Assembly: GCA_951406725.2 (NCBI GenBank)
Contig: OX597827.1
Coordinates: 58,032,001 to 58,096,000 of the forward strand
Length of the DNA: 64,000 nucleotides
Source of the DNA: Octopus vulgaris
Taxonomy: Eukaryota
Direction of reading: 5' to 3'
Part shown: positions 2,405 to 62,842 of the stretch, one piece after another
Layout: the number at the start of each line of letters is the position of its first letter
How positions within the stretch are numbered: the stretch's first letter is position 1
Made by a program: the position numbers and the translations under genes
The notes under the pieces: generated by a model
Databases searched by the model: none
Told to the model about the DNA's origin: nothing
Seen by the model: the letters and a program-made list of their open reading frames with translations, nothing else

Positions 2405-3643
2405 TATAATACATAGATATATATATATACAAATATGCACAGACAAATATAACATCCTTTGTATAGGGATAATTGATGTTATCAACATAAGGTTGCTTAA
2501 CATGCCAGAAACAACAGCTAAATCACTTTCTAATCAAAAGTCAACATCTTAATTACTAAGGACCCATTGAACAATCATTGCCAGAAGGATTCTGAACTAA
2601 CAGGACTGAATCAAGGCTAACCCAAGGGCAAAGAACAACAGAAGCAAGTATAAGACGTGATGGTGGGATATTACTTACTGAGAAGTGGTGGTGAGATATA
2701 GTTCAATTAAGAGAATGTAAAATGTTCACTAATACCTGTTGTCTAGGAAGAATCTAGTTTATCTTCATGTTTGCAAATGAAAAGGTGAGCTGTGATGGCA
2801 AATTAAAATGTTTAACTTTGGGTTTAGAGATTGCTTGGGTGTTATTATGAAATCCAAAACAGTGTGTGTAAAAATGGTCACCTAAAACATTGCCCAGTTT
2901 CACTCACATATCAGGACTTACAAAGTTTACATTTAATATAATATACTAAGTTGCTGAAGTGCAATCAAAAGGATCGATGACATGCAGAAAGGGAGCCTTT
3001 AAAAGTAACAGACTAAGTCTTACATGAAGGACAGTTTCTAATTAAGATAAATGCAAGTTTTTGTCTCTTTTGAAAGAGAGGAGAGGATTAGGAAAGATAG
3101 CAGTTAAATGGTGAAATGAAATGAAAGCTGCACTAAATAGGTTGTGAAAAAGGAAAAGTAGATAAGTGAACACTCATAGAAATGGGAATCGTGTTCAGTG
3201 TGAAAGTGCAGAGGTTCTATCAATAACATGTGAAAATGACTACTAAAGTATGAAATATTAGGATTAATTTTTGCTATCATATGTTACTAGTTTCCTTGGA
3301 GTTTATTGTTTTATTAAAACAAGACAGGATAATTTGATAATAAAAGTTGAGATGTTTTATAATCATGCAAAGCTATCCAACCTAGATTTGAATGGAGAAA
3401 TCGAATATAAAAATATGAAATTTATAGTATTTTATATATATTACAAAGAGGTAAATGAAGCTGAACATGCAGAGAGAGTGTATAAGAATATTTATTTATA
3501 TAAATATTAATGCATTTAACCAGTTTCACATTTGTACGATTTTCAAAAGTGTCAGTTTTGAGGGATGCAGAGCTGTGTCATAGGTTTAAGGGTATAATCA
3601 ATTTATCCCGTCAAAATGACATAAAAGCTTAAAATCATTCACA

Positions 3644-14224: not shown

Positions 14225-15074
14225 TGGCGTTTGGGTTAAATTTGATGGTTTTTTTATATCTCCTTTTTTTTTTTAGAAACAGCTTGATGTATTGGAGAGC
14301 ATAAAGACAAAAGCTGTAGTTGTTGAGAAAAAGTTAGCTGACATGGTGGACTCGAAGCCATCTGAATATTGGAAAAGTGTTACCTGTGTCATGATTTGCA
14401 CCAGGTGTCAAAATGCTGACATCATGACAGCTGATTAATGCTCTGGGAATAGTGTCAAAGTAAGACATGACATGGATAGCTGCAATAAAGACTGTAAAGC
14501 TGTGGCCAGCCGGAATGAACACGGTAGGCATTCTAATTGTTTTGCACACTGGAATTCAATCCCACATGCTTGAACAGGGCCTTAGGCATAAATCAGATGG
14601 CTATGTAAAGCTGCTAGAGTGATCAAACCCTGGTTGAAGAAAGAGTTACTGATGGAGGGCCATATGTGTGGCAGCAGGATTTAACTCCTGGTCATACCGC
14701 CAGAAAGAGTCAGAAGTGGTTGCTGGAGAATTTCTATGATTCCACCAGCCCTAATTCCTGGTCTCCAAGTTACCCTGATTGTAATTCCATAGATTACTAT
14801 GTGTGGAGTGTGGTTGAGAAAGACACCAATTGTTCTGCCTGCAACACCGAGACCAAGCTCAAGGAGAGGTTTGAAGATCTGCCCAAGTACACTGTGAGCA
14901 ATATATATACACAGGTTTCAGAGCCTTCTTGAGGCTATGGTGGAAGTTGAGTAAACTGTTATCGCTCAACCGTAATCTAGTTGATAGTTTTTGGCTTTTT
15001 AACATACTTTTACTTTTGGATGGAATACTGTGCTTTCTTTTCCTTTTAAGCTATCAAATTTAGTCTGGACACTA
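14225..15074 (+). mobile_element. maT-family (DD37D) Tc1/mariner relic, internally deleted
   Basis: ORF 14666-14932 (WQQD..PGHTARKSQKWL...WSPSYPDCNSIDYYVWS) has 37 residues between the last two catalytic Asp. Degenerate TIRs share TAAATTTGAT and are flanked by TA. Confidence 0.85.
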
Positions 15075-21189: not shown

Positions 21190-21738
21190 TTGTGGATAGT
21201 TGATGTGGTGCTGATGAAAGAGCAATAACTCTTGAAATATGCATATACACCTATTACCTTTTTTTTCCCCCTATCTTCACTCACACTGTATTCGTTTATG
21301 AAATGTTGTAACTTGCAATGCTGGCTCTGAATTCTATAGGAAACCTACAGAGATAAACTTAAAAGTGAATACTCCACACTACTAACACAAGGTAAGACAA
21401 TATTGACTTGTAAACTTTTAAATATACTTGGTAGTATATTATGTTTGCACAACGAAATACTGTGCCTTTGCCAGCAATTAATATGTATGTACCAGTTGCC
21501 AAGAATGTGTTTAATATGTAAATTAGTCTATCCAATTGTGTTACATCACTAAACTTAGTGGGTATTTAAGCAATGTGTTTGTGGATAGTTGACAGGTTGG
21601 ATGTGGTACTGATGAAAGAGCAGTAACTTTTGAAATATGTATATAAGCCTATTGTTTATTTTTTCTATCTTTGATTGCATTATTTATATAAATGTATTCA
21701 CTTATGAAATATAATTTGTAGTGTTGGCTCTAATTCTA
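21190..21738 (+). mobile_element. Penelope-like pseudo-LTR remnant (two direct repeats, each with a hammerhead motif)
   Basis: Direct repeats at about 21190-21337 and 21579-21738, each with CTGATGA-AAGAG-loop-CTYTT-GAAA-palindrome-TA. Confidence 0.7.
21207..21251 (+). ncRNA. Minimal type I hammerhead ribozyme motif
   Basis: GGTG CTGATGA AAGAG CAATAA CTCTT GAAA TATGCATA TA CACC. Stem I is GGTG/CACC, stem II is AAGAG/CTCTT, and stem III is palindromic. Confidence 0.75.
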
Positions 21739-25706: not shown

Positions 25707-25862
25707 ATGGCGTATAAATACCGGGAAGAAATTGTCGGGAAAAGATTTTTGTATGTTTCTGGTCCTGGAAAATTAAAACTTGCGAAAATTTCTGACTGGG
25801 AATGGCGGTCTGGTGTGGTTCGAGCTGTTTCTGGCAAGGATACGACTAACGTAGAACTCTCT
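25707..25862 (+). CDS. JMJD1C: First coding exon of a KDM3/JMJD1C-family JmjC histone H3K9 demethylase
   Basis: Translates to MAYKYREEIVGKRFLYVSGPGKLKLAKISDWEWRSGVVRAVSGKDTTNVELS, followed by a GTAAGT donor at 25863 (phase 0). It resembles the human JMJD1C N-terminus (MAVETRAELVGKRFLCV...WRAGVIRAVSHRDSRNPDLA). The expected next exon (xxVEFD..W...W) was not seen. Confidence 0.92.
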
Positions 25863-55270: not shown

Positions 55271-56448
55271 CAGAGGATGGGATATGACATACAGATTGCT
55301 ATATATTTAGGATCTTTTCCTTTTGACCTACAGATTTAAAAAATAATTTTTTGTAACTATACTCTTTCAAACTTCGTATACTGGGAGAATGTGTCATATA
55401 AAACGCCTTTTACTCCTAGCATTTTTGAGAAAAGTTTATGTTTATAAAGTTATTTCATATTGAAGTTCTCATATTTGTGTAATTTCAACCAACCAATGAC
55501 GTGTATTCAGCTGAATAAAATTACTGCCATTGTTTGTCAACAACTATCGGTGGTGTATTTTTCATTTGTCACTGTTATTTATGACATTGTTTATGCATTT
55601 GTACTGGTTTTAGCTTTAAGGTTTTAGGGTTAGGGTTTTACGGTTAGGGTTAAGGTTTTAAGGTTAGGGTTAGGGTTGTAATAAATAACTGACAAACGAA
55701 ATAACTTTATAAACATAAACTTTTCTCAAAAACGCTAAAAGTAAAAAGTGTTTTATATGACACATTCTACCAGTATACGAAGTTTAGTTACAAAAAATTA
55801 TTTTTTAAATCTGTTGGTCAAAAGGTAAAGATCCTATATTTAAGCTTGTTGTTTGTGTCTTTTACACACTACAGTTTCATACAAGTACTAAACAGTTTTT
55901 AGATTATATCTTTCATTTACTTATTGTTTAATTAACAGTAAGAATAATTGTGTTTATGCTTTTGAGTTTCATTTGATAGATGTAAGCTGCTTTGGTATTA
56001 GAGAATAGCTACAATATGATCCTGAGTTATAATTATTACCTTGTGTACTTTGATCAAATATTTGTGTATTTTGATCAAATATTTTTACAAAATCCTTTAA
56101 TAAACAGGTGTCTGTTTTATTACATGATAAGTGTTACTAAGAACAGAGGATGGGATCTGACATAGAGATTGTTATATATTTACGCCTGTTGTTTGTATTG
56201 TTTACACTCTTCAGTGTCACACAAGTACTAAACAGTTTTTAGATTATGTCATTTATTGACTTATTGTTTAATTAACAGTAAGAATAATTGTGCTTATGCT
56301 TTTGAGTTTCATTTGATGGATTTAAGCTGCTTTGGTATCAGAATAGCTACGATATGATCGTGAGTTGTAATTATTACTCTGTGTACTTGAAGAAATATTT
56401 TGATAGAATATTTTTACAAAACCCTTTAATAAACAGGTGTTACTAAGA
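55271..56448 (+). repeat. Diverged tandem duplication; copy A (55271-56143) carries an insertion that copy B (56144-56448) lacks
   Basis: Both copies start CAGAGGATGGGAT and end GTGTTACTAAGA. Confidence 0.95.
55310..55834. mobile_element. Long-TIR foldback (possibly Mutator-like) element with internal TTAGGG repeats
   Basis: Arms at about 55310-55456 and 55698-55834 (GGATCTTT...AAAGATCC), 8-bp TSD TATATTTA, and a degenerate TTAGGG array at about 55616-55677. Confidence 0.9.
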
Positions 56449-56941
56449 GCATCTAATTTCCGTGAAAATAGATCCATCCGGAATACAAATATGTTAATTC
56501 TAACACTCAGTTGAATTGTACAACAGTGTTACACATACAAACCCCCCAGCACCTCCCCGACAGACAGGTGGGCAGGCAGGCAGACAAACAGGCAGCAAAT
56601 CTTTAAGTCATACATTACAAATGACTGCAGTATTTAGAACCATAAAAACCTGCAAAACCTTCTTGAGGTTTAAAGGATGATGACCAAAACAAGATGCTTT
56701 CCTTTACGATCTTGCTACCAAGTAGGTGGCTAATCAACATTTACTCTAGATTAAAAATGGGAAAGAGAGCAACATATTAATTAACTTTTGCAAGATAACA
56801 GTTGACAGTGACCAGGGTTTCAGCTTGATTGCCTTCATCAAGCAGGCTACCTGAAACTTTGAAGTCACTCTCAACCTTTTCTCTGTTAAAGTTAATAAAT
56901 GTGTACTCTTCTGAAAAGTATTGAGTAGTCCTTCGATTTAA

Positions 56942-57153: not shown

Positions 57154-57477
57154 TTAATGTTAAATTGTTTTTATATATAACCCCGTATAAAAACAAACAT
57201 TAATTTATGTAAACCTACATGGTAAACATAGAAACAAGGAAAATTTAACTATTTCTCTGTATATAATAATTCATCATCATCATCATTTAGTGTCCGCTTT
57301 CCATGCTAGCATGGGTTGGACAATTGTATATATATAAAGATATGTTTATGTGTGTATACATGCATATATATATATATACATACATATACATATATATACA
57401 TACATATACATATATATATATATATACATACATATATATACATATATATACATATACATATATATATACATATATAT

Positions 57478-57534
<57 letters not shown>

Positions 57535-57581
57535 GTGAATTGAAGAAATGGAGCTGAACGCAGATTGAACAGAAATCGTTT

Positions 57582-57675
57582 TATTTCATTCTACACGTGT
57601 TTCGAAAGGCACAATTTACCAAAATCCGATTGAATAATGGGACCATATTGTGTCTTTCTCTTCAGGAAGAAAATA
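57582..57675 (-). ncRNA. Type I hammerhead ribozyme motif (minus strand)
   Basis: Reverse-complement copy of 57786-57879. Confidence 0.8.
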
Positions 57676-57684
57676 GGAAATTCC

Positions 57685-57775
57685 TATTTTCTTCCTGAAG
57701 AGAAAGACACAATATGGTCCCATTATTCAATCGGATTTTGGTAAATTGTGCCTTTCGAAACACGTAGAATGAATA
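57685..57775 (+). ncRNA. Hammerhead motif with shortened stem III
   Basis: CTGAAGA at 57695-57701, GAAA at 57757-57760, then CACGTA (2 nt shorter than in the adjacent copy). Confidence 0.6.
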
Positions 57776-57785
57776 AACGATTTCC

Positions 57786-57879
57786 TATTTTCTTCCTGAA
57801 GAGAAAGACACAATATGGTCCCATTATTCAATCGGATTTTGGTAAATTGTGCCTTTCGAAACACGTGTAGAATGAAATA
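57786..57879 (+). ncRNA. Type I hammerhead ribozyme motif
   Basis: Stem I TATTTTCTTC/GAATGAAATA; core CTGAAGA (57796-57802); stem II GAAAGACACAAT/ATTGTGCCTTTC; GAAA (57858-57861); palindromic ACACGTGT; predicted GUA cleavage after 57869. Confidence 0.85.
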
Positions 57880-58082
57880 AAACGATTTCTGTTCAATCTG
57901 CGTTCAGCTCCATTTCTTCAATTCACCAATAATATTTTAATTTCAATTATCCACACCAACGCACGGTTGCAACACCATATGGTTGTACCTCCAACCGTGC
58001 TGTTTACTGCTGTGATTTTTGCTACTAAGGTATCGGTTAAACTTTTGATTAATCTACTACAAGATTATTCATCTTTCTATTT

Positions 58083-58122
<40 letters not shown>

Positions 58123-61569: not shown

Positions 61570-62842
61570 TGGGTCATCCCATAAATAATGTTTTTTTATA
61601 CTTCTTTTATTTTTTCAAAATTAAGATAAACAAAGTTCTTCTTTAATCTAAAATATACTCTCCTTCATTTTCTACAATACTCTTCTATCTGTCTGGTAGA
61701 ATTGTAGGGGCCCTCTTCCAAAATTCCTTTGTTCATGATGAAAAATACTCGTCTAATACTTTTCTGACCTCATCTACAGAATTCATATGTTTTCTGTCCA
61801 AATGGTTTTGAAGACTGCGACATAAATGATAATCAGATGGGGCAATGTCTGATGAATATGGTAGGTGGGGCATTGTTTCCCATTTAAAATGCTCCAGCCT
61901 TTGGAATGTCATCCTCGCTGTATGTGACTGAGTATTATCCTGATGGAAGAACAACTTTCGTCTGGAAACCAAAGATGGTCGTCTTTCTTCTAGTGCTGAC
62001 TTAAGCCACTCGAGTTGTCTGCAGTAGATCTTCTTTGTTATCTTTTGATTTGGGTTTAAAAGTTCAAAGTGGACTAAACCTTTCATAATCCCACCAAACT
62101 GATAACAACACCTTATGTGGCTGAAGACCTTCTTTAGCCTGGTGTGCCTGTGTTTCTCCTTTTCCTACCCAGTGTCTTTGGTGCTTGACATTTATAGAGA
62201 ACCCATTTCTTGTCATCAGTCACTATTCTGTCCAAAAAAAGGTTCATTCGTGAGAAATGACAACAAAGAAGAGCACACATCCATTCTTTGTGCGCAATTA
62301 GACTCTGAAAGTTCATGGGGAACCCACTGACCCAATTTGCTGACTTCTCCAATGGCACGCAAGTATCAATGAATGGTTGAATGACCAGATCCAAGCTTCT
62401 CTGCTAGTTCCTCAACAGTCACGATGGGATTTTGTTCCAACATTTGCAGGGTGTCTTCAAGCTCTACAGACTTTCCAGGGTGAGGTTCATCTTCTAAACT
62501 GTAGTTTCCGGCTCAGAATTTCTGGAACTACCATTGACACTGGCTTATGCTTATTGTCTGATCCCCATATACCGCATTAATATTCCTCACAATTTCCATT
62601 GCGTTGCTGCCTTTATTGAACTCAGAAAGCAAAATATACTGAATATGTTCCTTTGTTACTTCCAACACAGCTTTGAAAAAGTAACTGTTAAAATTGAGCT
62701 GCACTCTTCAAAACTTGCACTGAGAATAAGAACAAGGTAAAATTATTACCTGCTTTTAAGTTGATGCAGGTAGTTTATCCTGTCCCCTCTGACTTTTAAT
62801 TCGTGGAATTGAAAAAAAGCCCATTATTTATGGGATGACCCA
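61570..62842 (-). mobile_element. Full-length mariner element (DD34D), inactive
   Basis: Perfect 21-bp inverted termini TGGGTCATCCCATAAATAATG, inserted in a (TA)n tract, about 1.27 kb long. Confidence 0.95.
61643..62664 (-). pseudogene. mariner transposase pseudogene
   Basis: Contains WVPHEL, IVTDDKKWVLY, and HQDN...PYSSDIAPSDYHL (D34D spacing). The start is mutated to TTG, and there are in-frame stops and frameshifts. Confidence 0.92.

Follow-up and report, generated by a model that had tools for sequence, protein, structure and literature searches.

The question raised by this locus is whether a mirror-image set of hammerhead ribozyme motifs in an intron of a KDM3-family gene acts on its host as an RNA switch or was left there by a transposable element. 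The window analyzed is a stretch of 64,000 nucleotides from Octopus vulgaris (assembly GCA_951406725.2, contig OX597827.1, positions 58,032,001 to 58,096,000, forward strand), and coordinates below are those of this stretch unless a parent unit, a protein, or another locus is named. The first-pass annotation had described positions 57526-57935 as a mirror-image cassette of three hammerheads on both strands inside a long hairpin, the sense motifs of which could cut intron 1 of the KDM3 pre-mRNA while an antisense arm could sequester them.

The insertion extends over 562 bp (57526-58087) and has (TA)n on both flanks: a (TA/TACA)n microsatellite at 57327-57525 forms the left part of the target, as seen in the sequence, a repeat scan, and a table of flanks (with an element border ambiguous by a few bases), and a (TA)n run at 58088-58114 forms the right part, as seen in the sequence and the same table. 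Judged by its sequence, the insertion derives from a young Penelope-like element (PLE) and is truncated at its 5' end; a natural 3,623-nt unit (L045:4135-7757) was taken as the reference for this element. Copies of this family stop either at a short site (3469-3473) or at a long site (3622-3623) of the unit, the two sites being 154 nt apart in the parent. At the KDM3 locus, a short arm on the minus strand (57526-57681), which is an inverted pseudo-LTR (pLTR) copy of parent positions 3314-3469, stops at the short site; it is followed on the plus strand by a middle partial tandem copy (57681-57781, three small deletions relative to parent 3316 to about 3419) and by a long arm of pLTR plus tail (57779-58087, parent 3313-3622) that stops at the long site. 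The plus-strand tail between the two element ends occupies 57936-58087, corresponds to the 154 nt of the parent, and is predicted to be structured. The 155-bp inverted repeat and the partial tandem copy of the first-pass annotation are both real, the arms at 57526-57681 and 57780-57935 being 100% complementary over 156 nt and the direct copies, offset by 101 nt, sharing an identical stretch of 85 nt. Its element end at 57935 was placed too early, the 152-nt tail having been missed and the element reaching about 58087. The claim of a young insertion agrees with the long arm, which shows 1 mismatch in 309 nt against other copies. The junction between the arms is near-symmetric. A reading as a MITE was ruled out, because the arms are unequal in length and map to the 3' end of a retroelement. 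Elsewhere in the window, a diverged direct repeat is seen at 56002-56145 and 56340-56451 (spacing about 330 nt, blocks 90-93% identical), and fragments resembling Tc1/mariner transposases were recognized by eye at 61733-62164 (minus strand) and 14618-14932 (plus strand).

An assembly artefact is extremely improbable as the origin of the palindrome or of the middle copy, because the arms stop at the two fixed sites of the family with (TA)n on both sides, as in 48 other loci, and a read fold-back would not yield such asymmetry. What speaks for an artefact comes from the middle copy, where GT is missing from the palindrome and two single nucleotides are missing from the 3' strand of stem I. Each of these three deletions removes one repeat unit, all fall within 20 nt, the variant junction occurs once genome-wide, and the same GT loss recurs at two other loci in one arm each. 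To a consensus error limited to these deletions we give a chance of about one in three. In contigs from four sequencing runs, no piece was found across the inversion or the tandem junction, and one run is without cover at 57758-57776, which is uninformative either way. At least half of the sampled words of 57530-58085 are present in 20 of 24 listed runs from 10 studies under six organism labels, so the family may be common to several related species; among the runs listed, none carrying these words is an RNA run.

The Penelope-like pLTR origin proposed in the first-pass annotation was supported by a genome search that recovered a parent element with a reverse transcriptase (RT) and a GIY-YIG endonuclease (EN). 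Exact words matched the genome 1,854 times across the predicted hammerhead cut site and 1,718 times at the long end, and the DNA search gave 1,159 candidates, of which 40 were scored. At L045 the order is inverted pLTR, pLTR, ORF, and pLTR, the ORF of this locus being interrupted, whereas 16 of 20 long stretches checked keep it open over at least 890 aa. The layout is that of an EN+ PLE, with partial-tandem pLTRs, an inverted 5'-truncated copy, and one end extended by a tail. At L068-L069, L070, L071, and L195, two to three full units stand in tandem and are candidate read-through donors, and at L044:2581-4503 a different Penelope-type RT with a Pfam RVT_1 match adjoins a copy of the KDM3-locus family.

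The parent protein is a single ORF of 895 aa in which YRDD is present. Its AlphaFold model (mean pLDDT 79.9) has telomerase RTs (TERTs) as its top seven Foldseek matches in the PDB, and a profile comparison matches the protein to another PLE RT with a probability of 88%. Residues 765-895 reach 0.94-0.96 to clusters named GIY-YIG in Atlas features, with a Pfam share of only 11%, and the GIY-YIG signature (AVY/YVG, R, E, N) aligns with that of homologues, placing the EN at 775-895. Pfam gave no RT or GIY-YIG match for this protein, and a PDB sequence search likewise named nothing. Two long N/S-rich inserts, predicted to be disordered, are seen at residues 488-557 and 633-765.

According to the available text of Craig et al. 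(2021, PMC8557442), the Hydra clade of PLEs is defined by a C-terminal EN, DKT, RWK, CxxC/CxH, a CxCX5C linker, (TA)n targets, and a length generally <3 kb. The element described here is like this clade in its single ORF with the RT followed by a C-terminal GIY-YIG, in its DKT motif (SDKTRN at 121-126), in the CxxC and CxH that surround the conserved E and N in place of CCHH (CNLC..E..N..CPH), and also in its canonical pLTR hammerhead, acac/gtgt-type stem III, and (TA)n insertion. Unlike the clade, the RWK position reads RIRWL, with RW retained and K replaced by L, and the unit of 3,623 nt exceeds the limit of about 3 kb. Moreover, the linker is lost, one of its four cysteines being left in the printed open-frame copies, inside a 130-aa stretch predicted to be disordered, whereas the linker pattern is found in 80 of 82 homologues with a C-terminal CxxC. 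The RWL, the 3.6-kb unit, and the single linker cysteine suggest that the element is Hydra-like rather than a member of the clade. By eye, it was also set apart from Hydra-1_Obim, both hammerhead and protein differing from the sequences given in the supplement of PMC8557442, as far as available. A sister family (L229-L234, 58% identical) is also without the cysteine linker and has a hammerhead with a long stem II; its printed copies have TA-rich sequence downstream. At least five other Hydra-like families with open frames of 718-850 aa are present in L229-L258, and several of them have hammerheads with an 8-nt stem III, for example ACATATGT and ACAATTGT.

The three CTGAAGA...GAAAC...GTA cores reported in the first-pass annotation, one minus and two plus, were located at 57592-57665 (minus), 57695-57766 (plus), and 57796-57869 (plus). 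Shuffled sequences give a mean of 0.11 matches to the core pattern and none of 100 reaches three, although the three cores are copies of one motif and not independent observations. Copy 1 (57592-57665) is intact and antisense to KDM3. Copy 2 (57695-57766) retains its core, while stem III is shortened to ACACGT and the 3' strand of stem I is damaged; the palindromic stem III ACACGTGT, which had been attributed to the motifs in general, is thus present in two of the three cores and absent from the middle one. Copy 3 (57786-57879, plus strand) can adopt an intact type I fold composed of stem I (57786-57795/57870-57879), the core (57796-57802), stem II (57803-57857), GAAA (57858-57861), and the palindromic stem III (57861-57868), with a predicted cut after 57869. 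In this copy, 11 of 12 positions pair in stem II and 9 of 10 in stem I, with a 2-bp stem III within the palindrome. The elements of a type I core (CUGANGA, GAAA, NUH, and three helices) are found in copies 1 and 3. The type I fold of copy 3 lies 1.8 kcal/mol above the minimum, and folding of the monomer is no better than that of shuffles (z -0.55). The search with hammerhead models suggested earlier gave weak support, since over 2.5 kb Rfam returned 45 matches, all generic hairpins and none a hammerhead, and Hammerhead_1 (RF00163) on an isolated copy scored 14.8 bits (E 0.47), below the gathering value of 34, with the long stem II scored as an insertion. Two more hammerhead-like motifs, with CTGATGA, a short stem II, and GAAATATG..., lie about 400 nt apart on the plus strand upstream of the KDM3 coding exon (21197-21250 and 21595-21650), and are probably pLTR remnants of an older Penelope family.

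With respect to the host, the first coding exon of the KDM3-family gene (DUF7030) was placed by a homologous protein at 25707-25862 on the plus strand, the DUF7030 and PWWP_KDM3B exons being both on this strand. Some 6 kb separate the window end from the next exon, so that the insertion falls within the first coding intron; the claim of a location in intron 1 therefore holds with a numbering that counts coding exons. Two of the cores are consequently in sense, which speaks for a fold-dependent switch. Also, competing folds do exist in silico: without the left arm, a hybrid hammerhead can form from the middle core and the GUA of copy 3 with a 6-bp stem III, at -40.5 against -42.2 kcal/mol, that is 1.7 kcal/mol above the minimum. 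Moreover, the stems covary weakly with those of the sister family (2 compensatory pairs among 3 sequences, 47 of 500 shuffles being as high); within the family itself, variation was too low for a comparison of stems. However, the fold favored by prediction silences the intact motif. In sense RNA the left arm pairs with copy 3 with a probability of 0.999 (predicted energies of -323 kcal/mol for this pairing and -311 kcal/mol for that with the middle copy), copy 3 is already fully paired in a predicted transcript ending at 57885, and the left arm would leave no copy free except the damaged middle one. In addition, metazoan PLE hammerheads alone cleave poorly (PMC4209133, available part) or need the protein of the element (PMC11167929, available part), the insertion is recent, and its layout is generic to the family: far from being a special cassette, it belongs to a set of about 1,700-1,850 exact matches in the genome, with the mirror layout in 48 of 69 sampled loci. 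Burial of the intact hammerhead in a predicted 156-bp duplex makes a regulatory role unlikely, and a switch acting on KDM3 would be an unlikely function of this sequence; to the reading of the first-pass annotation, with sense hammerheads cutting KDM3 intron 1, we attach a very low probability. The predicted hammerheads are likely passengers at this locus, which, taken alone, is an ordinary intronic transposon fragment of the sort that a known kind of element usually produces.

What the family as a whole shows is a strict rule for its ends. In a sample of the first 100 of 1,854 exact matches, from chromosome C1, merged to 69 loci and with one tandem array left out, 48 loci are inverted and combine a short with a long end, none is long/long or short/short, 4 are inverted with an odd end, and 17 are single-armed, the last class being subject to a 24-nt detection limit for the second arm and the samples coming mostly from one chromosome. 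Among the first 100 long-end matches, no opposite-strand pair was found within 20 kb. All 49 long ends, and 47 of 49 short ends, run into (TA)n sequence. Also, a second family, whose protein of 727 aa is about 40% identical and whose linker motif was matched in 3 of 12 loci, has 3,935 exact matches and a 70-nt tail; by eye, its 23 insertions comprise 17 short/long, none of the same type, 1 odd, and 5 unpaired, a count in which four pairs were deduced from matches separated by 3-4 kb and two may go back to a single duplicated event. In three loci of this family (L269, L281, and L287), the junction of short inverted insertions falls each time on a CTAG palindrome that precedes the hammerhead core by 14 nt, which could be a preferred joining site or a propagating mini-element. 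Regarding the tail, its fold in the window family has a z of -4.3, the matching stretches of two other families giving -0.85 and -0.05, and a conserved tail structure was not found across the three families folded.

One way to obtain an inverted arm is by fold-back, in which the first cDNA is copied on itself, or by self-priming on an antisense template as in the rotifer Penelope, and this was proposed from palindromes at inverted junctions (PMC3846280, available part). Here, the alleles common to both arms, the near-symmetric junction of the window, and the near-coterminal arms of 9 of 43 simple C1 pairs (within 20 nt, against about 2.7 expected) would agree with it. In the other pairs, the long arm extends >20 nt further 5' in 11, whereas in 23 it is the short arm that extends beyond the long arm, although the long arm has the tail. 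Since a copy cannot contain sequence missing from its template, fold-back is contradicted as a general rule. Moreover, in 9 of the 43 pairs the long arm lies wholly within the tail and nothing is common to both arms, minimal insertions of 24+35 and 27+97 nt keep the end rule with no sequence common to the arms, and a fixed second end is not predicted by fold-back, which we consider improbable. Separately, arm 5' ends cluster at parent 3230-3238 and 3305-3335, near CCATGG and GGATTTCC, and these may be joining palindromes or RNA 5' ends.

Although probably primed independently, the arms seem to come from a common donor. In 86 junction pairs, including matches chosen for their similarity to the window, overlapping arms agree at 497 of 503 polymorphic sites, compared with 61% between loci, a level that none of 2,000 permutations reaches. 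Sharing of alleles by the two arms could also be explained by two RNAs of one active donor or by later gene conversion, as agreement of alleles cannot separate one molecule from two sisters. Overlaps of up to 2.4 kb, which on a single RNA would require strand displacement, favor dual priming from two RNAs of one donor locus or a later homogenization of the arms. Nonetheless, if the two RNAs were free, the constant pairing of one short with one long end (48 of 48 cases) would be left unexplained; co-terminating arms are also in excess, and we regard this version as unlikely, if a little less so than fold-back. BLAST shows an overlap of 1-20 nt at 57 of the 86 junctions and may overstate microhomology.

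Paired priming from one RNA is the reading we prefer. For the window, it is quite probable that a single break was primed at both ends and that the two resulting cDNAs met head to head to form the insertion, with the hammerheads likely being passengers. The RT-GIY-YIG protein would cut both strands of (TA)n, and of the two target 3' ends one would prime at the short site and the second at the long site, the donor RNA probably being one molecule held by a dimer. Both cDNAs would end early, at the KDM3 locus just 5' of the hammerhead, and the RT on the long arm would have jumped back once at a GATTTC microhomology, producing the middle copy. Finally, the two cDNA 3' ends would anneal over a few bases, and fill-in would give the mirror. 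Against this reading count the 17 single-armed and the 4 odd-ended loci, the near-coterminal pairs, and a tail that folds strongly in one of three families. The hammerheads would be copied because the short site is 65 nt downstream of them, and wherever an arm spans the GUA site, its template RNA would have been uncut. As to hammerhead cleavage as a source of template 5' ends, no peak of arm 5' ends was found at the predicted cut site in 25 extra loci, chosen mostly for lacking an exact match across it, and among these both arms begin at or after the site in L212 only. Full-length copies begin on both sides of the predicted cut site, and exact words number 2,627 downstream, 1,854 spanning, and 1,849 upstream of it, counts that are confounded by subfamily variants.

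As a general account, PLE inverted insertions would be the product of paired target-primed reverse transcription, with one RNA and two fixed start sites, one per break end, a proposal that we hold with slightly better than even confidence. If true, the tail would be a spacer between two priming sites and not an optional extra, hammerhead cleavage would be dispensable for integration, and paired priming would replace self-priming as the account of PLE inverted repeats. Moreover, (TA)n would be targeted without the cysteine linker that had been proposed to do so.

It is already known that pLTRs can contain hammerheads, that PLE ends can be inverted or in partial tandem with a tail on one side, and that an octopus has Hydra elements; recently active Penelope families in an octopus have also been described (PMC13282606, available part). 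In the literature searched, mostly open access, neither a strict short/long rule nor a dual-priming account of PLE inversions was found, and these may be in print. The available text of PMC8557442 names the formation of tandem and inverted PLE structures and the finding of microsatellites as an open question. In this context, the footprint of this young family, in which many ORFs are open, is strict and countable: one short and one long end with the same donor alleles and an optional overlap. It allows a direct biochemical test of an open mechanism.

In twin priming of LINE-1, the second target strand primes a second cDNA, leading to an inversion joined by microhomology, with a variable second site and arms without overlap. 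In contrast, both sites are fixed here and the arms may overlap by kilobases. Within PLEs, the hammerhead differs in its stem II, a 55-nt arm here compared with stems of 4-9 bp with short loops in the table of PMC8557442 (available part). The non-LTR retrozymes (bioRxiv 10.64898/2026.07.22.740005, available part) are, like the insertion described here, short non-coding PLE-derived units with type I hammerheads; however, they form tandem arrays with a complete hammerhead per unit, whereas here the tandem copy is one, partial, damaged, and unique. Identity with a retrozyme was ruled out, the middle unit being damaged and single in the genome. The Penelope of Adineta vaga (Arkhipova et al. 2013, PMC3846280) has, like this family, head-to-head inverted pLTRs with a tail on one, palindromes at the junctions, and N-rich inserts in the ORF. 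Nonetheless, the available part of that report treats the tail as optional and attributes the inversion to self-priming, while here every one of 48 inverted insertions with two canonical ends has exactly one tail. Finally, in PAc, the Poseidon element of the anole Anolis carolinensis, the protein cuts and extends both strands in vitro, is predicted to be dimeric, and uses two RT start sites that bound the tail, the choice of start site being the same on both strands and hammerhead cleavage being unneeded for integration (Frangieh et al. 2024, PMC11167929, available part, which does not take up the formation of inverted insertions). The octopus family resembles PAc in the two start sites bounding a tail, the AT-rich target, the use of both strands, and a hammerhead upstream of the start sites, and differs in the tail itself, which here measures 154 nt and stops 45 nt short of the ATG, whereas that of PAc measures 30-40 nt and lies inside the ORF.
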